DNA from: an uncultured Candidatus Saccharibacteria bacterium
GTDB lineage: Bacteria > Patescibacteriota > Minisyncoccia > Minisyncoccales > UBA5738
NCBI GenBank assembly: GCA_964603475.1
Contig: CAZRVG010000001.1
Span: 1 to 61,987 of the forward strand
Reading direction: 5' to 3'
Length of the DNA stretch: 61,987 nt
This document shows, in pieces, positions 8,551-58,327 of the stretch. The first letter of the stretch is position 1. The number at the start of each line of letters is the position of its first letter. Below the pieces are notes generated by a model. It was not told the origin of the DNA. It was given only the letters and a program-made list of their open reading frames with translations, and did no database searches. Made by a program: the position numbers and the translations under genes.

Positions 8551-10314
8551 ATGGAAGAAAAAAGAGCAATTTCCGCAAAAACAATATTCGCGCATTTTTG
8601 GCAGGGAGTTTTTCCGCATCGGCGGCTTTTTTGGATTTGCATCACCGCGTTCACCATAACCCAGTTTATTGAGTTGGCAATTCCGATTTTTTACAAGGGA
8701 TTTTTTGACGAATTGACAAACCCTGCGGTACAAGCCGCCGATCTGATAAAAATTATTATAATCATCGCCGGAATCCACTTCATTAATTGGATATTTGCTG
8801 CCATTGCACACCTGACACTTACTAATGGAGAAGCAAAAATTATGGCCAAATTGAAACAAAAAGCGTTTGACTGCTTGATGCTTCATTCACGAAAATTTTT
8901 TGTTAATAATTTTGCCGGTTCTTTGGTACAAAAAATTAATCGCTTTTCGCGGGCATTCGAAATATTGATGGACAGTTTTGTTTTTAATTTAATACCCATA
9001 ACAATAACTGTTATTGGAGCAATCGCGGTTACCGCGATCATCGCGCCGCCGATATCTTTGATTATTGCGATTTGGTCATTTTTTGTAATCGTTTCCAATT
9101 TCATTTTTTTTCGCTGGAAAGTGAAATATAACGTCATCGCCGCGGCCGCGGACTCAAAAACTACCGGATTGCTTTCAGACAATATCATCAATTATATCTC
9201 GGTTAAATTGTTCAATGGTTATCGGCGCGAATCAAAAAACTTTAAAAACGTCTCCAACGATCAAGCGCAAAAAACACTATTAACATGGCGGCTTGATAAC
9301 ATTGCCAACATTGTTCATCATTTGCTGATTTTTTTGGTGGAGTTTGCCGCGTTCTATTACACAATTTTACTTTGGCAAAAAGGCCTCGCCCCAATCGGCA
9401 CTTTTGTTTTGGTGCAAACTTATATTATTGGTATTTCGCACCATTTGTGGGGGGTGGGGCGAATGTTCCGCGGAATCTATCAAGCGATGGCCGATTCAAA
9501 AGAAATGGTGGAGATTTTGGAAACTCCGCACCGAATTAAGGATATTCCCGGCGCCAAAATTTTACAGAAAGCAGCGGGTAAAATTGAGTTTCGCGATGTT
9601 GTTTTCGGCTTTCAAGGAGACCGCGTGATTTTGAAAAACTTAAACTTAACCATCAACGCCGGCGAACAGGTAGCGATCGTCGGCTCGTCGGGCGCGGGTA
9701 AAACCACGCTCACCGGATTGCTTTTGCGCTTGTTTGATTCGATAAGCGGAAAAATTTTAATTGACGGGAACAATATCCAAGAAATCACGCAGGAAAGCTT
9801 GCGCCAAAATATCAGCCTGGTCCCCCAAGATCCCACGCTTTTCCATCGTTCTATTTTGGAGAATATCCGTTACAGCCGCCCCGAAGCATCCGACGAAGAA
9901 GTGATCGCCGCCGCGCGAATGGCGCATTGCGACAAATTTATTGAGAGAATGCCCGCCGGATACCAAACTTTGGTGGGTGAGCGGGGAGTTAAACTCTCCG
10001 GCGGCGAGCGGCAAAGAGTGGCAATCGCCCGCGCGATTTTGAAACGCGCCCCGATTTTGATTTTGGACGAAGCCACCTCATCACTTGATTCAAAATCCGA
10101 AGCGCTCATTCAAGACGCGCTCAACGCGTTGATGAAAGACCAAACCGTGATCGCCATCGCGCACCGCCTTTCTACCATTCGCAAAATGGATCGGGTGGTG
10201 GTGATAAAAAACGGCAAAGTCGCCGAAGAAGGCAAACACTCATCGTTAATTCGCAAAAAAGACGGCATCTACCGCAAACTCTGGCGCCTCCAATCCGCCG
10301 GCTTCATCAAATAA
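8551..10314 (+). CDS. ABC transporter permease/ATP-binding protein (exporter)
   Basis: TM domain plus Walker A GSSGAGKT, LSGGERQR, ILILDEATS, IAHRLST. Confidence 0.95.
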   Translation: MEEKRAISAKTIFAHFWQGVFPHRRLFWICITAFTITQFIELAIPIFYKGFFDELTNPAVQAADLIKIIIIIAGIHFINWIFAAIAHLTLTNGEAKIMAKLKQKAFDCLMLHSRKFFVNNFAGSLVQKINRFSRAFEILMDSFVFNLIPITITVIGAIAVTAIIAPPISLIIAIWSFFVIVSNFIFFRWKVKYNVIAAAADSKTTGLLSDNIINYISVKLFNGYRRESKNFKNVSNDQAQKTLLTWRLDNIANIVHHLLIFLVEFAAFYYTILLWQKGLAPIGTFVLVQTYIIGISHHLWGVGRMFRGIYQAMADSKEMVEILETPHRIKDIPGAKILQKAAGKIEFRDVVFGFQGDRVILKNLNLTINAGEQVAIVGSSGAGKTTLTGLLLRLFDSISGKILIDGNNIQEITQESLRQNISLVPQDPTLFHRSILENIRYSRPEASDEEVIAAARMAHCDKFIERMPAGYQTLVGERGVKLSGGERQRVAIARAILKRAPILILDEATSSLDSKSEALIQDALNALMKDQTVIAIAHRLSTIRKMDRVVVIKNGKVAEEGKHSSLIRKKDGIYRKLWRLQSAGFIK

Positions 10315-10393
10315 ACATCAAACCCTGAACTTTAAAGCCTGAACTTTAAACTTTGACCATTAAAAATCGAACTTTGACGCTTATCAACCCTTC

Positions 10394-10434
10394 AATAAAT
10401 TGCGTGGGTCTGACCCACGCAAAAAAACATATGA
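10394..10434 (+). repeat. Left ~40-bp direct repeat containing the family A palindrome TGCGTGGGT-CTG-ACCCACGCA and ending at the transposase ATG
   Basis: aataaattgcgtgggtctgacccacgcaaaaaaacatatga. Confidence 0.92.
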
Positions 10435-11210
10435 GCATTAAAGTTGAACCATTTACGGTAGGCGATTATATCCATGCGTATAATTGCGGCAACAAAAAAG
10501 CGCAAATATTCTTTGACAAGTCGGATTATTGGCGGTTTTCGTGGTGCCTAAGATTTTTTAATGACCAAAGAAGTATTTATGATTTTGCCAAATGCTTAAC
10601 CGATTTAGTCTATGAACAAAAAGAAATCTTGCAAAAATTGCGTGGGTCTGACCCACGCAGAAAGGCACCCTATCTGGATGGACGAAATACTTTTGAATGG
10701 CGAACCGAAGAATGGGGAGAGCAACAGCCATTAGTTCAAATAATATCTTATCATTTGTCGCCAAATCACTTTCATTTGTTTTTAAAAGAGATTATTTCTG
10801 GCGGTATCAGTAAATTTATGCAAAAAATCGGCGGGGGATATACTGTTTACCGAAACTTAAAAAGCCATGAAGCTGGAAGAATATTTCAAGGCAGCTATCG
10901 CGGGAAGACAATAAAGGATGAAAGATACTTTCAATATTTAGACGCGTATATTCAGGTTTTCAATGCTTTTGAGCTTTTTGAGGGCGGAATTTTAAACGCC
11001 CTCAACCATTTTGACGAAGCGTTTCAATTCGCGCTGGATTATCCGTTCTGTAGTCTGGGCGAATCATTCGGAATAAGAAATTTGGGAATTGTTAATAGGA
11101 GCTCTTTCCAAGAGAAATTTCCAAATTTAGAAACATACAAAGAATTTTGCCGCGACGCATTATTAACCCGGAGTGTCCGTGAATTTTTGGGTAAATTAAC
11201 CCTGGAATAA
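10431..11210 (+). mobile_element. REP-associated tyrosine transposase-like (RAYT / Y1 HUH) gene; likely start is ATG 10431
   Basis: YIHAYNCGN...IF..DY.RF, YHLSPNHFHL (HUH), IFQGSY, AYIQ (catalytic Tyr); flanked by palindromes. Confidence 0.85.
10639..10659. repeat. Family A palindrome inside the transposase CDS (encodes LRGSDPR)
   Basis: tgcgtgggtctgacccacgca, identical to 10400-10421 core. Confidence 0.92.
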
Positions 11211-11245
11211 ATTGCGTGGGTAAGACCCACGCAAAAAACATATGA
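11206..11245 (+). repeat. Right ~40-bp direct repeat (loop AAG) ending at the DUF2207 ATG
   Basis: aataaattgcgtgggtaagacccacgcaaaaaacatatga. Confidence 0.92.
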
Positions 11246-12957
11246 AAAAAATATTGGAAATAATAATGATTTGGGGAATAATTATTTTTTTGCCGGTTTG
11301 GGCGCAGGCAAGAGATGCAGGCCAAATTACGGATTGGTATGTTAGGGACTTTCAAAGCACGATTACGGTCAATGACGACGCATCGCTTTTGGTTGAAGAA
11401 AAAATTATTGCCGATTGCGGGAATTTGCCGGACAAGCACGGAATTTTTCGGATTTTGCCCGTGCAAACAAGAACCGAAAGCGGAATCATCAAAACTCCGA
11501 TTGAATTGGTTTCCATCACTGATTTTTCCGGCAATAAAATTACATATTCAACAAGCGTTGACAATTTTAACCATACGATAACCTATAAAATCGGCGATCC
11601 GAATATCACCATAAAAGGAGAAAACGAATATAAAATCACATATTTGGTAAAAAACGCGATCCGGGCGCGAAGCAACGATTTTGACGAATTGTATTGGAAT
11701 CTGTCCGGCAATTTTTGGGACATTGAAATTGATAATTTTGGCGCCGAGATTATTTTCCCGGCAGAAATAAATCGAAACAATTCCGAAGTTTATTTATATA
11801 GCGGCGGTTTGGGCGAAAAAGAAAATCTGTTGGCGAATTATCAATGGAAAAGCGACAATATTTTGCGCGTTTATTCCAACAAAATTCTAATGCCGCGGCA
11901 GGGGACTACCGCGTCAATAATATTCCCAAAAGGAATTATCGCTTCGCATAAACCAAATCTTTTTGAAGCGTATGGCGATTATTTGTGGTTTTTGATTCCG
12001 GTATTGGTTTTTATTTTCAGTTTTTTGATTTGGAATAAACACGGCAAAGACCCGCGGATTGATAAAACGATAATTCCGGAATTTGAAATTCCCCAAAATT
12101 TAACGCCAATGGAAATGGGAATGTTAGCGCAAAACGGAGGATTTAACGATAAGTTTATCACCGCGACAATCGTTGATCTGGCAGTTAAAAAATACATCAT
12201 CATTGAAGAAATTCCCAAAAAGGGAATATTCGGCAAACAGGATTTTTACTTAAAAAAAATCTCCGCCGATTTTAGCGAGCTTGGCAATCCCGAAAAAACG
12301 CTGATTGATAAAATATTTGTCGCAAAGCAAGAGGTTTTATTGTCAAAATTAAAAAATAATTTTTACAAAGATTTGCCGTCAATCAAAAAATCCGCCGCGA
12401 CAGCGCTGGAAAACAAAGACCTCATTTATCCCGGCGGACAAGTGTTAAAAATTACTTTTATAATAATCGGAATGACAGTTCTTGGTTTTGGAATCTTTAT
12501 GTTAAATTTTGGATTTTATTGGATTATTGCAATCTTGCTATCAGCGATAATTTTGGAATTTTTCGGAATTTTAATGCCCAAACGAACCCCGCAAGGCGCC
12601 GAGTTAAATTGGCGGATAAAGGGTTTTAAATTATATATGGAAACCGCTGAAAAATATCGCGCGCGATTTTATGAAAAAGAAAACATTTTTGAAAAATTTC
12701 TGCCTTACGCGATAATGTTTGGCATAACAAAACTTTGGATCAAAAAAATGGAAGAAATCTATGGCAAGGAATATTTTAACAATTATCATCCAATCTGGTA
12801 TGCCGGCGCGATAACAAGCTTTAACGCCGATAGTTTTTCCTCGCAAATAAACACGCTATCTTCGGGCATTGCCTCCAATATCGGCACGGCATCCGGCGCG
12901 CACGGCACCGGCGGTGCCGGCGGAGGGGGTGGTGGCGGAGGGGGCGGCGGCTGGTAA
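11242..12957 (+). CDS. DUF2207 domain membrane protein (YciQ-like)
   Basis: Signal peptide, HGIFR, DELYWN, KRTPQG, FEKFLPYAIMFG, C-terminal GGGGGGGW. Confidence 0.92.
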   Translation: MKKILEIIMIWGIIIFLPVWAQARDAGQITDWYVRDFQSTITVNDDASLLVEEKIIADCGNLPDKHGIFRILPVQTRTESGIIKTPIELVSITDFSGNKITYSTSVDNFNHTITYKIGDPNITIKGENEYKITYLVKNAIRARSNDFDELYWNLSGNFWDIEIDNFGAEIIFPAEINRNNSEVYLYSGGLGEKENLLANYQWKSDNILRVYSNKILMPRQGTTASIIFPKGIIASHKPNLFEAYGDYLWFLIPVLVFIFSFLIWNKHGKDPRIDKTIIPEFEIPQNLTPMEMGMLAQNGGFNDKFITATIVDLAVKKYIIIEEIPKKGIFGKQDFYLKKISADFSELGNPEKTLIDKIFVAKQEVLLSKLKNNFYKDLPSIKKSAATALENKDLIYPGGQVLKITFIIIGMTVLGFGIFMLNFGFYWIIAILLSAIILEFFGILMPKRTPQGAELNWRIKGFKLYMETAEKYRARFYEKENIFEKFLPYAIMFGITKLWIKKMEEIYGKEYFNNYHPIWYAGAITSFNADSFSSQINTLSSGIASNIGTASGAHGTGGAGGGGGGGGGGGW

Positions 12958-12959
12958 AT

Positions 12960-13595
12960 ATGAATTTAATTGAGCATTTAATTGAATCGGGGTATTTAAA
13001 AACTCCGCGGATAATCGCGGCATTTCGCGCCATCAAGCGCAAGGACTTTTTGCCCGCGGATTTACCGCACCGGCATATTTTGGTCGAATTGGATGAGGCA
13101 ATTTCCATCGGATTCGCGCAAACAATTTCCCAGCCCGCGGTAGTGGCGTTTATGCTGGAACTTTTAGATCCGCAACCCGGGCAAAAAATTCTGGATATTG
13201 GCTATGGCTCCGGCTGGACCACCGCGCTTTTGGCGCATATTGTCACGCAAGAAGGCAAAAAAGGCAAAGTGGTGGCCATCGAGAGGATAAAACCTTTGGC
13301 GGAATTTGGCAAAGAAAATATCGCCAAATACGGATTTATCAAAAATCGCGCCGTACAATCCGTTGTCGACGACGGATCAAAGGGCTACGAACCGCAAGCG
13401 CCTTACGACCGGATTTTAGCATCCGCTTCCGCGCAAAGAATTCCCGAACAATGGGAAAAGCAGTTAAACTCCTGCGGAATAATCGTGGCGCCTTTGGAAA
13501 GCGCGATCGTTAAAATTGAAAAAACAAAAGAGGGGATTTTTAGCGAAAACCGCTACGAAGGGTTTGCCTTCGTGCCTCTCGTGCAAGAAACTTAA
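12960..13595 (+). CDS. pcm: Protein-L-isoaspartate O-methyltransferase
   Basis: QTISQP, ILDIGYGSGW, DGSKGYEPQAPYDRI, FVPL. Confidence 0.92.
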   Translation: MNLIEHLIESGYLKTPRIIAAFRAIKRKDFLPADLPHRHILVELDEAISIGFAQTISQPAVVAFMLELLDPQPGQKILDIGYGSGWTTALLAHIVTQEGKKGKVVAIERIKPLAEFGKENIAKYGFIKNRAVQSVVDDGSKGYEPQAPYDRILASASAQRIPEQWEKQLNSCGIIVAPLESAIVKIEKTKEGIFSENRYEGFAFVPLVQET

Positions 13596-13987
13596 TTTTT
13601 TTGCTCCTTTTCGCCTCTTACCGCCAACAATTGCACGCCCAACCATGAAATTTTCCCTCCGGCAAAAATCAAAAAGGTGCCAAATATCGACCACGACAAA
13701 ATATTGAGCATTTTGGCAATTGCGTCATCGGGAAGCATATCAACCATGGCGCGATTGACCGAATATTGTATCTGATTTTGCAAATAATCCTGCGCGCCCT
13801 CAATAGATAAGGCATTAAGATCCGCCTGCGGCGGCAAAGCGCTTTCTTGTTTCTTGGATGAAGCCTCAAACACCGCCGGAAATTCGGCTTTTGCCGTGAA
13901 ATATTGATATGACGCGTTGATCGCCCAGCCGATAACCAGCAACCCCGCAACCACCAAGCACCAACCCGCAATAATTTTTATGTTCAT
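13592..13987 (-). CDS. Hypothetical 2-TM membrane protein (ATG 13987 preferred)
   Basis: Two hydrophobic segments flanking a soluble loop. Confidence 0.7.
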   Translation of the reverse strand: MNIKIIAGWCLVVAGLLVIGWAINASYQYFTAKAEFPAVFEASSKKQESALPPQADLNALSIEGAQDYLQNQIQYSVNRAMVDMLPDDAIAKMLNILSWSIFGTFLIFAGGKISWLGVQLLAVRGEKEQKN

Positions 13988-14001
13988 AATGGAAAATAAT
14001 C

Positions 14002-14144
14002 TCGAAACACGAATATCGAAATCCGAAACAAGCACAAATTTCCAAATATTAAATATCTAAAACAGAACACAGAATTATTTTAAAAATTTGAAAATTAGAA
14101 TTTTGATATTGTTTCGAGATTCGAAATTCGATATTCGGATTTAG
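14002..14144. repeat. Imperfect inverted repeat built from ~7-nt periodic subunits (cgaatat/cgaaatc ... attcgaa/attcgat)
   Basis: cgaatatcgaaatccgaa at 14010 pairs imperfectly with ttcgaaattcgatattcg near 14120. Confidence 0.65.
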
Positions 14145-15553
14145 CTTTCATAAAAAGCTTTGTATGCCAAATAGGTCGAATAAATATCGGCCTTTGACGC
14201 GATCTCAAACGGCGCATGCATTGAAAGCAATGCCGGGCCCATATCAACCACATCGATATTGTTTCGCGCGAAAAAAACCGCGATTGTTCCGCCGCCGCCT
14301 TCATCAACCTTGCCCAAGCCGCCGGTTTGCCAATTGATTTTATTTGTGTTCAAAGTTTTTCTCACAAACGCCATATATTCAGCGGTCGCTTCGCTGGTAT
14401 CATATTTTCCATGGTGGCCGCAATGTTTTTCCATCACCACGCCCGCGCCAATCCGTGCGGTATTCAACGAATCAAACACATCTGCATAATCCGGGTCAAA
14501 TCCCGCGGTCACATCCGCGGATATCGCCTTTGACAAGGTTAAAGTATCGCGCAAATAATTCTCGTTATGTTCGCCAGTTTCCAAATAAAGCAACTCGCTG
14601 ATGAAGTCGGTAATATAATTTGAACTCGCTCCCGTATTGCCCTCGCTGCCAATTTCTTCTTTGTCGGTCAAAACAACAACCGTCGCGTATTCATTTTGCT
14701 TGGCATCAAACGTTGATTGAAGCGCCGCATAAGCGCAAACGCGATCATCGTGGCCATAGGCGGCAATCATACTTCGGTCAAATCCAAGATCACGAGCAAG
14801 CCCTTGCGGAACCAATTCCAAATCGGCAGAAACAAAATCTTCTTCGGCAATGCCATACTTTTCATTTAACAATTTCAGCAAATTTTTCTTAACCGCATCT
14901 TTATCCTTATCATCTCCATTTTTGACCGCCATACTGCCGGCAACCACATTCAAGCTTTCGGCGGTTATTGCTTCGGATAATTTTTTTTCTTCCTGCTGTT
15001 TTGCCAAATGGGGCAATAAATCGGTAATCATAAAAATTGGGTCTTCGGGCTTGTCGCCGATAGATATTTCCACCTTTAATCCGTCCTGCTTAATAATTAC
15101 GCCGTAAATTGCCAGCGGCAAGGCAGTCCACTGGTATTTTTTAATGCCGCCGTAATAATGGGTTTTCAAAAATGCAATATGTTCGCCCTCAAACAGCGGT
15201 TTTACTTTCAAATCAAGACGGGGAGAATCAATATGCGCCAAAATTATCCGCGCGCCGCTTTTTATCGGTTTTTTGCCGGGTTTTGCCAAAATTATTGATT
15301 TGCCGCGATTAATGGAATAAACCGGCTTGTTAAAGTTCGTTTTATCGGCTTGTCCGATGTGTTCCAATTTTTGAAAGCCGGCGTCTTTGGCTCTCTGCTC
15401 AATATAAGAAACATTTTTTCGCTCCGTTTTGCATTCGCTTAGGAATTTTTTGTATTCCTCGCAAAAATCAAAGCATTTTTTTATTGTCGCTTCGTCCCAA
15501 ACGTCAAACGCGAATTTTTTCTCAAACAACAAATTTTTTTCTTTTTTATCCAT
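14141..15553 (-). CDS. M18 family aminopeptidase
   Basis: AHIDSPRLDLK, GHDDRVC, DKEEIGSEG, ISADV, SMHAPFE. Confidence 0.92.
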   Translation of the reverse strand: MDKKEKNLLFEKKFAFDVWDEATIKKCFDFCEEYKKFLSECKTERKNVSYIEQRAKDAGFQKLEHIGQADKTNFNKPVYSINRGKSIILAKPGKKPIKSGARIILAHIDSPRLDLKVKPLFEGEHIAFLKTHYYGGIKKYQWTALPLAIYGVIIKQDGLKVEISIGDKPEDPIFMITDLLPHLAKQQEEKKLSEAITAESLNVVAGSMAVKNGDDKDKDAVKKNLLKLLNEKYGIAEEDFVSADLELVPQGLARDLGFDRSMIAAYGHDDRVCAYAALQSTFDAKQNEYATVVVLTDKEEIGSEGNTGASSNYITDFISELLYLETGEHNENYLRDTLTLSKAISADVTAGFDPDYADVFDSLNTARIGAGVVMEKHCGHHGKYDTSEATAEYMAFVRKTLNTNKINWQTGGLGKVDEGGGGTIAVFFARNNIDVVDMGPALLSMHAPFEIASKADIYSTYLAYKAFYES

Positions 15554-15628
15554 TATTTTTGTGTTATTATCCTCTTATCCAATATTTTTAAATTACTTCA
15601 TTTGCCGCAAAAAGTAAAACGCCAATAT

Positions 15629-16144
15629 ATGAAAAAATCCTTAGTTATTGTTTTAGCCATCGCAACAATTTTGATCGCCGCTGGAATTTGGCAATCGAGA
15701 CAAACAACAAATATGCCGGAGCCGGAAATTGAAATCGAAAAAAAATCAGTTACCAAGAATCAAAATTCCACGGAACTAAAAACCAACGATACGCAAAATA
15801 ACGAAGAAATAATTGATAATTTTGAAAAATGCGTTGCCGCCGGAAAAGAAGTGATCGGCGAAGCGCCGCACCGCCGCTGTATCGTCAACGACGATTTGGC
15901 ATATATCGAAATCGAAACCTGCGCCGCTCCCGGCGGCGAAAAAATCAACCTACTTGAAGCCCAGCGGATATTTGATATGAGCCAATGTTCGCGAGAGGGC
16001 AGCGCCAAAGAAACCCATCAATGCGACGAACAAAACGGCACGCTGGAAATCGACATCCTTGCCTACCGCAAAAATTGCGCCGCCGTGTGCGTGATCAACA
16101 TCACCTCAAAATCCGCCCAAGTTGATTGGCGGTGCGAAGAATAG
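15629..16144 (+). CDS. Membrane-anchored Cys-rich extracellular hypothetical protein
   Basis: N-terminal TM, NFEKCVAAG module, C-terminal multi-Cys domain ending WRC. Confidence 0.75.
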   Translation: MKKSLVIVLAIATILIAAGIWQSRQTTNMPEPEIEIEKKSVTKNQNSTELKTNDTQNNEEIIDNFEKCVAAGKEVIGEAPHRRCIVNDDLAYIEIETCAAPGGEKINLLEAQRIFDMSQCSREGSAKETHQCDEQNGTLEIDILAYRKNCAAVCVINITSKSAQVDWRCEE

Positions 16145-16152
16145 TTGCAAGT

Positions 16153-16194
16153 TGATGAGTGATGAGTGATGAGTGATGAGTGATGAGTGATGAG
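16153..16194. repeat. Perfect heptamer tandem (TGATGAG)x6
   Basis: Direct reading of the sequence. Confidence 0.97.
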
Positions 16195-16238
16195 AACGCG
16201 ATACCTGCCCAATTGCAGGCATTTATTGTTGCCCAACC

Positions 16239-16266
16239 TTGACAAAATCCCATTTTTATGTATAAT
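16239..16266 (+). promoter_or_regulatory. sigma70 promoter TTGACA-N16-TATAAT
   Basis: Consensus hexamers upstream of 16284. Confidence 0.8.
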
Positions 16267-16283
16267 AAAAACAGGAGAATTTT

Positions 16284-16712
16284 ATGGATAGGAAAAAGAT
16301 AGGAAAAGGAGCTATTGAGTGGATCTGCAGAATTTTTATCATAGCATTACTCTCAGTAGCATTAGGATCTGCCTTCATAGACAGAGCCGACCTTGCGAAG
16401 CAAATGCTTTGGGATATCTCTTGTATTGGTGGAGCAATATTGATTGCCGTTATTGTCGCAAAACACATCAAGCGGCAAGGCGGATGGGCAACTGATATTG
16501 TGATAGCATTTTTTGTTTCACTATTTGCATTAAGAATTGCGGTTGTGCTATCGGATATATTCTATTCAGCGATAGAAGCCACTCAATCCTTAATGGCAGT
16601 GGAAAATGCTACGGCGGCGCTTGGATCGTCTTTAGCGCTTATCGTAATAGCCATACTTGCGATAGATGGCTTATATCAACGATATAAAAGACAATCTGCT
16701 TCATCAACATAG
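16284..16712 (+). CDS. Hypothetical 4-TM membrane protein, atypical codon usage
   Basis: Own promoter and GGAG SD; frequent ATA/GCA codons unlike its neighbours. Confidence 0.7.
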   Translation: MDRKKIGKGAIEWICRIFIIALLSVALGSAFIDRADLAKQMLWDISCIGGAILIAVIVAKHIKRQGGWATDIVIAFFVSLFALRIAVVLSDIFYSAIEATQSLMAVENATAALGSSLALIVIAILAIDGLYQRYKRQSASST

Positions 16713-16763
16713 AGGATTATCCCTCTTTTTTTTACAAATGCGGGTTTGGTGTATAATGGGATT

Positions 16764-17978
16764 ATGGAAGATCAAAATCAATCAAATCTCTTTGAGGGGG
16801 CGCCGCTTGGCGTGGCGCAATTTATCGACAAAATCAATTCGCGGATAAAGCCGATAAACGCAAAAATTATCGGCGAGGTGAGCGAAGCCAAACCCGGGCC
16901 CACGGGGCATGTTTATTTTTCATTGAAAGATGAGGATGGCGGTGCGGTGATTTCCTGCGCTCTCTGGAAGTCGCGCGCCGATCTTTTCGGGATTCAATTA
17001 AAAGTTGGAATGAAAATCATCGCCTCCGGCCATTGCGAAATTTATCCGCCCAGCGGCCGGTTTTCATTTATTTGCGACACGATAGAGCTTGCCGGAGAAG
17101 GCGCGCTGAAAGCCGCCTATGACAAATTGCTCAAAGAACTCGCCGCCGAGGGAATTTTTGCACCGGAGAAAAAACGCGCAATTCCTAAATATTGTCGTAA
17201 AATTGGTATTATCACCGCGCGCCAAGGCGCGGTGATCCATGATTTTTTAAACAACATCGGCCAATTCGGCTTTCAAATTGAATTCATTGATTCGCGCGTG
17301 GAAGGCCAGCTGGCGGCGGGCGATTTGCTGGCGTCAATTAACACTTTCAAAAAAAGGCAAATTGATGTTTTGGTGGTGATGCGCGGCGGCGGATCTCTGG
17401 AGGCGATGCTTGCCTTTAACAATGAAACTATCGTGCGCGAAATCGCCAAATTTCCCGTGCCGGTGATCGCGGCAATCGGGCACGACAGGGATATACCGCT
17501 GGCGGCAATGGCCGCGGATCGCGCGGTTTCCACACCCACCGCCGCAGCAAATTTGCTCACCCAATCATGGCAAGAAATTTTTCGCAAACTTGACCATTGC
17601 GAAACCATAATTCTTGGCGGATACAAAAACGCGCTGATCCAAAATCAATCCCGCCTGCGCCAATACGCGGGAATTTTGGCCAACTTCAAATATATTCTGC
17701 AAAGCATCAATCGACGCCTGGACACAATGATGCAAAATTCAATTTTGGCGATAAAAAACAAATTGGCATCATCAAAAAATCAAATTGACTATTTGCAAAA
17801 TTTCATCGCCGCGCACGATCCCGAAAAGCAGTTGAAATTGGGCTATTCCATCGCCAAAATCAACGGCAAAATCGTCAAAAGCGCCAAAAATGTAACTATC
17901 GGCGATAATTTGGATATAAATTTTTGCGATGGTATAATCAATTCCGAAGCAAAAAACAAAAAAATCTATGGAAAATAA
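16764..17978 (+). CDS. xseA: Exodeoxyribonuclease VII large subunit
   Basis: GHVYFSLKD, RGGGSLE, AIGHDRD, TPTAAA, LKLGYSI. Confidence 0.95.
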   Translation: MEDQNQSNLFEGAPLGVAQFIDKINSRIKPINAKIIGEVSEAKPGPTGHVYFSLKDEDGGAVISCALWKSRADLFGIQLKVGMKIIASGHCEIYPPSGRFSFICDTIELAGEGALKAAYDKLLKELAAEGIFAPEKKRAIPKYCRKIGIITARQGAVIHDFLNNIGQFGFQIEFIDSRVEGQLAAGDLLASINTFKKRQIDVLVVMRGGGSLEAMLAFNNETIVREIAKFPVPVIAAIGHDRDIPLAAMAADRAVSTPTAAANLLTQSWQEIFRKLDHCETIILGGYKNALIQNQSRLRQYAGILANFKYILQSINRRLDTMMQNSILAIKNKLASSKNQIDYLQNFIAAHDPEKQLKLGYSIAKINGKIVKSAKNVTIGDNLDINFCDGIINSEAKNKKIYGK

Positions 17979-25685: not shown

Positions 25686-26735
25686 ATGAAAATCACGATC
25701 ATAGGAGGCGGGGTCTGCGGGCTCTATTTGGCAAAAAATTTGGCGGAAAGGAACCATAAAATAACAGTTTTCGAGAAGAAAAAAACCATCGGAAAACTTT
25801 GCTGTTCGGGATTATTTTCCGCGCGGCTCTTTGATTTTGTTCCCGAAGCACGCGGGTTGGCAACAAACCAAATAAATCGCTGTATTATTAATTTTCCCAA
25901 GAAAAAAATAAATTTAAAATTTCGCCCGCCGTTTTTTGTCATTGACCACGCCCGGCTGGATTTACTTGTCGCCGCTTTAGCGACACGGGCGGGCGCAAAC
26001 ATTCGCATCGGTCAAAACATTGATTTTGCAAGATTGGAAACATTATCCGCCGAATACGACCGCATCATCGGTTGCGACGGCGCCCTATCAACCATCCGCC
26101 AATATCTAATAAGTGGAAATCAAACTTCCTGCGCGGGTCAGACCCACGCAAAATTGCGTGGGTCTGACCCGCGCAAAAATAACCGGCCGAATTTTATGCT
26201 GGGAATTCAAGGGTTTGAACAAAAAGCGGATGATTCTGATTTTGTTGAAACTTGGGCGACGAAAAACGGGTTTTTGTGGCGGATCCCGCGCAGCGAAGAT
26301 GTTGAATGGGGGATTATGGAAGAGCCGGATGTCGCCCGCAGGCTCTTTGATGAATTTATCGCGCAAAAGAACATAAAGCTAGAAGATCTAAGATCGGCAA
26401 TTATCCCGCAAGGATTAACAATTCCCCAAAACAAAAAGATCACTTTGTGCGGCGACGCGTCGGGACTGACCAAGCCATGGTCCGGGGGCGGCGTCATTTG
26501 GAATTTAACCCAAGCCGATCTTCTCTTGAAAAATTTCCCCAATTTTATACAATACAGGAAAGAAGCGAAGCGTTTTTTTGGATTAAGACTGTTTGCGGGC
26601 AATTTTGCCAAAAAATGCGCTTATTTTACCGGATTCAATCTTCCTTGGATAATCCCCGGAGATTTCAATCTTGACGGCGATTACTTGTTAAAATTTAAAA
26701 GAAACGATAATGGACAATCAAGAAACTCTGCCTGA
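25686..26735 (+). CDS. FAD-dependent oxidoreductase, geranylgeranyl reductase-like, carrying an in-frame palindrome insertion
   Basis: GGGVCG, KLCCSG, IIGCDGALS, LCGDASGLTKPWSGGG. Confidence 0.85.
   Translation: MKITIIGGGVCGLYLAKNLAERNHKITVFEKKKTIGKLCCSGLFSARLFDFVPEARGLATNQINRCIINFPKKKINLKFRPPFFVIDHARLDLLVAALATRAGANIRIGQNIDFARLETLSAEYDRIIGCDGALSTIRQYLISGNQTSCAGQTHAKLRGSDPRKNNRPNFMLGIQGFEQKADDSDFVETWATKNGFLWRIPRSEDVEWGIMEEPDVARRLFDEFIAQKNIKLEDLRSAIIPQGLTIPQNKKITLCGDASGLTKPWSGGGVIWNLTQADLLLKNFPNFIQYRKEAKRFFGLRLFAGNFAKKCAYFTGFNLPWIIPGDFNLDGDYLLKFKRNDNGQSRNSA
26130..26175. repeat. Family A REP-like inverted doublet inside the reductase CDS
   Basis: tgcgcgggtcagacccacgca-aaat-tgcgtgggtctgacccgcgca, exact reverse complements. 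Confidence 0.93.
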
Positions 26736-40799: not shown

Positions 40800-40808
40800 G
40801 GTTTTTCG

Positions 40809-40854
40809 TGTTGAAATCAAACTTCAACAAGATTGTTGAAGTTTGATTTCAACA
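40809..40854. repeat. Family B REP-like inverted doublet upstream of the murD start
   Basis: tgttgaaatcaaacttcaaca-agat-tgttgaagtttgatttcaaca, exact reverse complements. Confidence 0.92.
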
Positions 40855-40891
40855 CTTTGATTTTAACACAAATTGAGGCATAAAAAAAATG

Positions 40892-58306: not shown

Positions 58307-58327
58307 TGGTGAGGTTTGACCTCACCA
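58307..58327. repeat. Family D palindrome TGGTGAGGT-TTG-ACCTCACCA
   Basis: Perfect 9-3-9 palindrome. Confidence 0.9.

Follow-up and report, generated by a model that had tools for sequence, protein, structure and literature searches.

A RAYT-like transposase gene bracketed by its own palindromes, with a further copy in frame, in a contig of Candidatus Saccharibacteria

The stretch of DNA analyzed here (the window, 61,987 nt) is contig CAZRVG010000001.1 from an uncultured Candidatus Saccharibacteria bacterium, and our subject is a gene in it that resembles those of the REP-associated tyrosine transposases (RAYTs), together with the short repetitive extragenic palindromes (REPs) found around and inside it. 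The gene (10431 to 11210, plus strand) codes for 259 amino acids and lies between an ABC transporter gene (8551 to 10314, plus strand; Pfam ABC_membrane and ABC_tran) and a gene for a DUF2207 membrane protein (11242 to 12957, plus strand; Pfam DUF2207 and DUF2207_C). A palindrome search and folding placed one REP hairpin on either side of it. The upstream hairpin (10400 to 10422) has an 11-bp stem and a 1-nt loop and ends 8 nt before the start codon, and the downstream one (11212 to 11234; 10-bp stem, loop TAA) begins 2 nt after the stop codon. A third copy with one mismatch (10638 to 10660) is found within the gene, where it is translated as residues L70 to R76 (LRGSDPR), where a predicted disordered loop (residues 72 to 91) begins. 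A sequence-only reading of the same DNA had described a palindrome and an ATG before both the transposase (10431) and DUF2207 (11242), a third copy translated as LRGSDPR, and a RAYT-type gene bracketed by its own palindromes; the sequence, the palindrome search, Pfam, and the fold bear out this description.

The palindrome pattern gave 10 matches in the window, that is, five sites read on two strands, where shuffled sequences lead one to expect 0.02. Folded as single-stranded DNA (ssDNA), each REP copy has an energy of about -12 kcal/mol (z between -4.4 and -5.8). A scan of positions 9500 to 12500 against Rfam found no family. The flanking hairpins are part of a longer direct repeat of 51/52 nt on the plus strand, identified by a repeat search and local alignment (10383 to 10434 versus 11195 to 11245), in which 46 of 52 alignment columns match, one gap included. 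The upstream copy consists of ATCAACCCTTCAATAAA + TTGCGTGGGTCTGACCCACGCAA + AAAAAACATATGA and the downstream copy of ATTAACCCTGGAATAAA + TTGCGTGGGTAAGACCCACGCAA + AAAAACATATGA. Both close with ATGA, containing the ATG of the 259-amino-acid Y1_Tnp open reading frame (ORF) at 10431 and that of DUF2207 at 11242. The direct repeat ending on both start codons is therefore present as previously described, although it is longer than the ~40 bp assigned to it.

The protein matches the Pfam family Y1_Tnp (PF01797) with 27.2 bits against a cutoff of 23, over residues 102 to 175 only. A database search found 340 homologs of 230 to 270 amino acids, and nearly all of those with a named source come from Patescibacteria (Paceibacteria, Nealsonbacteria, Parcubacteria, and Daviesbacteria). 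The HUH histidines (H113 and H115) as well as Y169, Y173, Q175, and N178, the last three forming a YIQxxN motif at Y173, are invariant in an alignment of 32 homologs. In the AlphaFold model (pLDDT 80), HUH is located on the strand formed by residues 113 to 120 and the tyrosine motif on the following helix (164 to 180). When this model was compared with the PDB by Foldseek, 23 of the top 24 matches were Y1 transposases (IS608 TnpA, the Escherichia coli TnpA-REP 4er8, ISDra2, and IS200; entries such as 2a6m and 2xo6), with probabilities of 0.82 to 1.00, yet with weak E values of ~3e-3 and TM-scores of 0.36 to 0.58 per target; rank 19 was a Thg1 chain. PHROGs gave no match. Considering that Y1_Tnp is barely above its cutoff, that the RAYT equivalog of NCBIfam falls far below its own, and that the fold matches are to Y1 enzymes, the protein is, judged by sequence and predicted fold, a distant and longer branch of the HUH/Y1 superfamily that lies outside the curated RAYT family by sequence. 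There is just one copy of its gene in the 62-kb window.

A scan of species-representative genomes provided 75 loci of this family. The 27 that were analyzed (42 to 87% identity) are the window, 25 of the scan loci, and locus L098, which was added from a later look-up. All 27 have a genome-specific palindrome ~10 to 100 nt upstream of the ATG, and all 27 have it again ~0 to 60 nt downstream of the stop codon. In 15 of them the same palindrome is also found within the ORF, with its center at +176 to +230 from the ATG, and is hence confined to a 55-nt span of ORFs of ~700 to 790 nt. The internal region scores 18 to 26 against the flanks of its own locus, versus a median of 8 to 9 against the flanks of other loci, and higher noncognate scores come only from genomes sharing a REP type. 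Of the 120 cells at stem offsets 2 to 9 in these 15 hairpins, 119 hold Watson-Crick pairs, while the number of pair types per position ranges from one to four (for example, GC 4, AT 2, CG 4, and TA 5 at one position; offset 2 is an invariant T-A). Only the apical T-Y-N-R-A is conserved among them, and the hairpin center falls in two codon phases, so that two reading frames are used. Since pairing is kept while pair types vary and codon phases differ, what is conserved is, as far as sequence comparison goes, not the peptide but the structure of the DNA or RNA and its identity to the copies on either side. In the model of the window protein, the coded residues (70 to 77) are situated where a long helix passes into the low-confidence loop 72 to 91 (pLDDT below 50 at 78 to 85), which is also the indel-rich segment of the alignment of 32 homologs. 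Loci with an internal copy occur in four clades of the transposase tree. Between the window and L001, six of seven third codon positions within the internal REP agree, versus 62% overall, a sample too small to serve as evidence.

The palindromes are near perfect and their orientation can be read from loop and flanks only. Judged by flanks, the copies in the window are direct, and the loop base shows the upstream and downstream copies as inverted in many family loci. No copy is preceded by GTAG; sequences such as AATAAA and CAAAAA are found in the 5' flanks instead. Two or three divergent gene/palindrome pairs per genome were common in the scan, and the paralogs within a genome are ~45 to 60% identical, each with its own palindrome.

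Comparison of the neighborhood with related loci argues for a long residence of the gene. In L001, L002, and L098, a transposase gene (87, 83, and 81% identical, respectively) lies directly upstream of the DUF2207 ortholog, and the order transposase-DUF2207-PCMT is common to these three and the window. The DUF2207, ABC, and PCMT neighbors are only 63 to 79% identical in the same loci. By the Nei-Gojobori method, the proportion of synonymous differences (pS) is 0.62 to 0.75 for the transposase and 0.58 to 0.73 for the neighbors, and the ratio of nonsynonymous to synonymous rates (dN/dS) is 0.04 to 0.08 and 0.11 to 0.20, respectively. Given the shared site and the equally saturated synonymous sites, the gene is, by these estimates, as old at this site as its neighbors and under stronger purifying selection, and a recent arrival is excluded. 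Recent transfer was also considered as the cause of the high conservation of the transposase and was rejected, since its synonymous sites are as saturated as those of the neighbors. What lies upstream varies: ABC in the window and L098, ABC and a small ORF in L002, and a cytochrome b5 (Cyt-b5) gene in L001 and L093; the REP-flanked site is therefore a rearrangement point as well. ABC orthologs are upstream of the same site in L002, L098, L097, and L099.

DUF2207 relatives were searched for with the protein trimmed of its signal peptide and poly-Gly tail, and exact-protein look-ups provided the contexts of further ones. L097 and L099 have the order ABC-Cytb5-DUF2207, which is likely ancestral, and neither the transposase nor the palindrome. 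L094, L096, and L100 also lack the gene and the palindrome of the window (L094 has an unrelated one). The sequence-only reading had supposed a palindromic leader resident before DUF2207, and its absence there in L096, L097, L099, and L100 speaks against such a leader; since relatives with the likely ancestral order have neither gene nor hairpin, the hairpin leader would have arrived with the transposase unit. A different case is L093, which reads Cyt-b5 stop-AATAAA-CTGCGTGGGTCCGACCCACGCAA-cccaat-ACCCACGCAA-...-ATG of DUF2207, i.e., one REP and half a REP without the gene. A neighbor-joining tree built from DUF2207 joins L093 to the window, L092, and L001 (entered there as protein P0126) with 100% bootstrap (58% at the inner node), and it was within this clade that gain and loss were polarized. 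Nested as it is among transposase carriers and keeping REP remains, L093 is best read as a loss of the gene between or near two REPs, not as a state preceding insertion. An empty site in relatives, which the sequence-only reading had expected, was thus found as far as the gene is concerned, but it carries a REP and a half. Likewise, excision between the repeats is made plausible by this transposase-less, single-palindrome allele, although it is not the clean one-repeat product that had been proposed.

Two observations concern DUF2207 itself. The end of the gene (12880 to 12957) and its orthologs in L001 and L002 code for a conserved glycine run followed by W (GGAGGGGGGGGGGGW), of low complexity. 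The strain contig L092 is 97.2% identical in DNA to window positions 11015 to 16971 overall, with only 87 to 88% identity in the DUF2207 protein, which suggests that this surface protein may hold a locally hypervariable or recombined stretch.

The orthologous loci also indicate what the direct repeat is made of. Left of the downstream hairpin are the last five codons of the transposase and its stop (KLTLE*), a tail conserved throughout the family. Left of the upstream hairpin, the sequence aligns with the 3' end of the L093 Cyt-b5 gene and AATAAA (BLASTN, L093 687 to 726, comprising the Cyt-b5 3' end and REP, versus window 10384 to 10422, 87.5%), and is probably the relic of a Cyt-b5 gene lost from the window. 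Right of the upstream hairpin, the A-run and CAT are the native leader of the transposase, for which L001 has AAAATAC-ATG and L002 AAAACAAT-ATG. Right of the downstream hairpin, the REP is followed by AAAAACAT, again an A-run and CAT, and the DUF2207 ATG; in L001 it is followed by AAACCATAT and 37 nt more before that ATG. The window start at 11242 aligns codon for codon with that of L093 and is, on this comparison, native to DUF2207. The idea that the transposase borrowed the start of the downstream gene finds no support in these alignments, in which the A-rich leader and ATG are native to the transposase orthologs and the DUF2207 ATG is orthologous to the L093 start. The 3' flank (A-run and CAT[AT]) is already common to both copies in L001. 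The repeat stops short of the downstream ATG in L001 and L002 and reaches it in the strain contigs L091 and L092 as in the window (the downstream copy is identical in both); hence, ending exactly on the start codon is specific to the window lineage. From its composition, the 52-nt repeat is two flanking REPs with short flanks and not a target-site duplication of the DUF2207 leader.

Further repeats and signals were found around the gene. The 17-nt 5' flank and the CATATG 3' flank were considered as parts of a general extended REP unit, which was rejected, as other copies of the same REP lack them. Tandem transposase arrays were sought as the source of the repeat and none was found, just a small fragment upstream of the gene in L028. 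This RAYT-like fragment (L028 4387 to 4521) lies ~600 nt upstream of the intact gene, beside extra REP copies, and is possibly a decayed duplicate. L027 (~9900 to 10000 and 10820 to 10880) and the equivalent region of L030, two distant family members, have a promoter-like direct repeat of ~50 nt (TTTACA...TAAAAT), with one copy ahead of the upstream REP and the other beyond the downstream REP, and no tandem gene copy was found; extended direct repeats round the gene are therefore not unique to the window. A consensus scan gave a weak sigma-70-like promoter match on the plus strand (10374 to 10401; TTGACG-16-TAAATT, 9 of 12 positions), whose -10 hexamer overlaps the upstream hairpin at its foot by 2 nt, in a region with five such sites versus 2.8 expected from shuffles; the match does not stand out from the shuffled background. 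The spacer between ABC and the transposase (10318 to 10382) contains short direct repeats (CTGAACTTTAAA twice, then CGAACTTTGAC), which may be debris of the deletion that removed Cyt-b5, the gene found here in relatives.

Outside the gene, the window has an inverted REP doublet (26129 to 26176) that folds into one long hairpin (-31.4 kcal/mol); its two copies are additional to those listed by the sequence-only reading. The doublet lies in frame in the ORF of an FAD/NAD-binding oxidoreductase (25686 to 26735), to which it adds ~16 residues (CAGQTHAKLRGSDPRK); in the L087 ortholog, one REP alone occupies this site, a difference of 24 nt (eight codons). An attempt to recognize the doublet as an insertion relative to solved structures was abandoned because the alignment was too weak, and L087 was compared instead. 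The doublet has the structure of a REPIN (an inverted REP doublet), and doublets of the same REP are found in L079, L081, L083, and L086, while the three copies at the transposase gene are singles. The exact palindrome is present in 15 metagenome stretches in differing contexts, and most of the dispersed copies recovered are intragenic. There are two separate in-frame copies in UvrC (L082 6776 to 7134), in-frame doublets in a MiaB-like radical-SAM enzyme and in a DegT-type aminotransferase, and an in-frame copy in a HolB-like protein; besides L082, the stretches with in-frame REPs are L081 (2116 to 2163), L079 (2307 to 2360; also L083, L086, and L089), and L084 (3163 to 3185).

A second palindrome family (TGTTGAAGTCAAACTTCAACA and variants) occurs in the window at 1308 to 1354, 40808 to 40855, and 58307 to 58327, as two inverted doublets between genes and a related single (TGGTGAGGTTTGACCTCACCA). 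This family matches the palindromes on either side of L024, a 44%-identical paralog in the genome of L001. There is no second transposase gene in the window, and this match predicts a second RAYT-like gene outside it.

Taking these data together, we consider it probable (about 0.7) that the locus is a REPtron-like unit, i.e., a long-resident RAYT-type gene with its cognate REP hairpins, belonging to a Patescibacteria-specific family, and not a recent insertion. In this unit, a vertically inherited HUH/Y1 gene carries its cognate 23-nt REP before the start, after the stop, and in frame within the segment coding for a disordered loop. By analogy with TnpA-REP and IS608, the protein would bind the folded hairpin on ssDNA and cut and rejoin a few bases away. 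This cutting and rejoining could copy REPs to new sites and keep the three local copies matched to the current REP of the genome; plain gene conversion between copies 240 to 800 bp apart is the alternative for their local sameness. The internal copy may be a real substrate, kept for a cis effect on the expression or integrity of its own gene, and deletion between the flanking REPs can remove the gene, as in L093.

Several points weigh against this explanation. We infer the binding, cleavage, and copying by the protein from analogy, and the three copies could change in concert through the same ordinary conversion between neighbors, with no need for the enzyme. The RAYT equivalog of NCBIfam (NF047646) reached 13 bits against a cutoff of 80, and a comparison of the family profile with PDB sequences found no relative, only spurious FAM166 matches. 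A GTAG head is lacking in the REPs, and by their flanks the three copies at the gene run in direct, not inverted, orientation. REP density is low, with two copies outside the gene in 61 kb of the window, and several loci of 15 to 20 kb hold only the three copies at the gene, which also fits the ends of an element. The deep nodes of the DUF2207 tree are unsupported, so that a single gain with losses and several gains are not separable. The two 5' flanks of the repeat agree at 14 of 17 positions, and the upstream one is equally similar to the native L093 Cyt-b5 tail; this likeness could be due to local gene conversion or to the coincidence of two A-rich tails. Finally, the internal copy is absent in 12 of the 27 loci, which makes it nonessential.

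One rival explanation is an autonomous insertion sequence (IS) of the IS200/IS605 type, with the flanking hairpins as left and right ends of a unit of ~0.86 kb that moves as ssDNA and the dispersed palindromes as solo ends or derivatives similar to miniature inverted-repeat transposable elements. The Y1_Tnp match above the cutoff and best folds that include IS608 and ISDra2 TnpA fit it, as do hairpins that are direct by their flanks as in IS200/IS605, a unit size near that of IS200, the concentration of palindromes at the gene, its variable presence at the site among relatives, and the two or three divergent paralogs per genome. The repeat also reaches 17 nt 5' and 13 nt 3' of the hairpin, distances that we take to be similar to the cleavage-site spacing of IS608. 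However, the only copy in 62 kb has no near-identical counterpart in other contexts, the ortholog holds the same site across dS > 1 with a dN/dS (0.04 to 0.08) below that of neighboring cellular genes, the paralogs within a genome are only ~45 to 60% identical, each with its own palindrome, and the palindromes spread alone, as singles and inverted doublets, in frame in genes too. We therefore regard an autonomous element as unlikely. Still less credible is the proposal of the sequence-only reading, in which the transposase inserted recently through a resident hairpin before DUF2207, duplicating the leader, borrowing the start, and remaining cleanly excisable. The repeat that ends on both ATGs would agree with it, and so would the single REP, preceded by AATAAA, ahead of DUF2207 in the gene-less L093, but the conserved gene-DUF2207 order in L001, L002, and L098 and synonymous sites as saturated as those of the neighbors (pS 0.62 to 0.75) do not. 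Moreover, the hairpin, A-rich leader, and ATG belong to the transposase orthologs, the left part of the downstream repeat is family-conserved C-terminal coding sequence, the ABC-Cytb5-DUF2207 relatives lack a palindrome before DUF2207, and L093, with its extra half REP and its place in a transposase-bearing clade, points to loss. From what is established for IS200/IS605, target-site duplications are not known as products of Y1 transposases, another point against recent insertion, a model that the sequence comparisons already contradict on timing and polarity. Hardly any weight can be given to the view that the palindromes are ordinary terminators or mRNA-stabilizing hairpins unrelated to the transposase: each copy precedes a T-rich run on the minus strand and is scored terminator-like there, but there are no minus-strand genes here to terminate, A-runs follow the hairpins on the plus strand, copies lie inside ORFs, and the palindrome sequence changes with the transposase lineage in 27 loci.

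Within the REPtron-like explanation, it is possible, although we would not call it probable, that the internal copy is functional. Nearly on a par with this is the opposite view of a functionless passenger, an intragenic REP tolerated in a disordered, indel-rich loop that recurs through local copying or gene conversion with the flanks. Real genes of this lineage often carry REPs in their reading frame, and REPs within genes have been described elsewhere (PMC3733652); the vicinity of rayt genes is where new REPs preferentially arise (PMC2817692, PMC8266576). The coded peptide falls in a low-confidence loop and where the alignment is variable, the copy is read in two different frames across the family, and the 12 loci without it have either a shorter loop or REP-like relic peptides that lack a hairpin. 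On the other hand, recurrence in a 55-nt span of 15 loci from four clades with differing REPs needs long retention or a very strong hot spot, and with pairing in 119 of 120 cells there are no decayed intermediates among the 15 loci. The relic peptides (LEPRDP and LQGLDP, with the hairpin gone) are found in the group of 249 to 252 amino acids, where decay would have followed once the constraint was lost. A more specific proposal is that the in-frame hairpin is a conserved cis site for action of the enzyme on its own gene, which we put forward as tentative and rather doubtful. The enzyme would bind the hairpin in DNA or mRNA and throttle its own expression, or, alternatively, the hairpin would be a protected master copy linking the specificity of the enzyme to the REP sequence of the genome. 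Self-cleavage or autoregulation via the internal hairpin, as suggested by the sequence-only reading, would be a possibility.

RAYTs are widespread domesticated transposases whose cellular role and manner of spreading REPs are long-standing questions. This locus departs from what is usual in three respects: the enzyme gene evolves more slowly than its neighbors, the REPs are few and often in frame in a very compact genome, and a cognate REP lies in the ORF of the enzyme itself. A RAYT gene bracketed by REPs is ordinary; the new aspect, which we could not find described, is a built-in, in-frame copy that recurs and covaries across a family. In the parts of the RAYT/REP literature that it covered, a term search brought up no REP located within a RAYT gene, and a full-text search brought up no paper connecting RAYT or REP terms with Patescibacteria; reports of either may exist elsewhere. 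Perfect pairing kept while the REP sequence turns over implies that something beyond protein coding acts on those 20-odd bases. The locus extends RAYT/REP-like systems to the Patescibacteria, a group of ultrasmall bacteria, and a single site (ABC/Cytb5/DUF2207) would illustrate REP-mediated gain, loss, and rearrangement. Should the cis-site proposal be true, this would be the first RAYT system to come with its own substrate, amenable to experiment, and would open a route to what RAYTs do.

Compared with known systems, the unit shares with IS200/IS605 elements (IS200, IS608, and ISDra2) a Y1_Tnp domain and fold, a subterminal hairpin at either end on the same strand, the lack of inverted terminal repeats, and a size of ~0.8 kb. 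Such elements insert 3' of a fixed tetra- or pentanucleotide and do not duplicate the target; no independent insertion sites of the whole unit were found for comparison. Unlike them, it is present in one copy, is syntenic across saturated synonymous divergence, and gives no sign of movement; its hairpins disperse alone and there is no tnpB. The left- and right-end hairpins of those elements are distinct, whereas the upstream and downstream ones are nearly the same here and differ in two loop bases. The 5' stem-loops of IS200 limit tnpA expression; they are element-specific, are not copies of dispersed repeats, and none lies in the coding region. Our locus shares with them a stable hairpin just ahead of the Y1 transposase start codon, for which a regulatory role may be proposed by analogy.

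Rickettsia palindromic elements are reportedly in-frame palindromic repeats in functional genes. Intragenic REPs are documented in other bacteria too, uvr genes included (PMC3733652, Di Nocera et al. 2013), and those described here resemble them as short palindromes that keep the frame of functional genes and, single or dimeric, add 8 to 30 residues, with uvr among the targets. Unlike both of these, one of the host genes in our case is that of the presumed mobilizing enzyme itself, and the copy in the enzyme gene recurs at the same place across the family with differing REPs.

RAYT genes are flanked by REPs that coevolve with them (PMC2817692) and resemble housekeeping genes in being single-copy and vertically inherited (PMC5581495); TnpA-REP cleaves ssDNA at CT or CA, 5' or 3' of the hairpin, with a 5' GTAG as recognition or guide motif (PMC8266576). 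The locus has much in common with REPtrons such as E. coli yafM (PDB 4ER8) and those of Stenotrophomonas, Pseudomonas, and Marinomonas: an HUH/Y1 gene bracketed by short palindromes that occur elsewhere too and coevolve with it, one syntenic and vertically inherited copy per type with several divergent gene/REP pairs per genome, and inverted REP doublets of the REPIN kind. It differs from them in a protein that is ~100 amino acids longer and fails the NCBIfam RAYT model, in the lack of a GTAG head 5' of the palindrome, in flanking copies that are direct by their flanks, and in a low REP copy number with many copies intragenic. The gene evolves more slowly than its neighbors, the opposite of what was reported for RAYTs by Nunvar et al. 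(2010). The host phylum, Patescibacteria, also sets it apart, and so does the cognate REP that 15 of the 27 family loci carry within the ORF.

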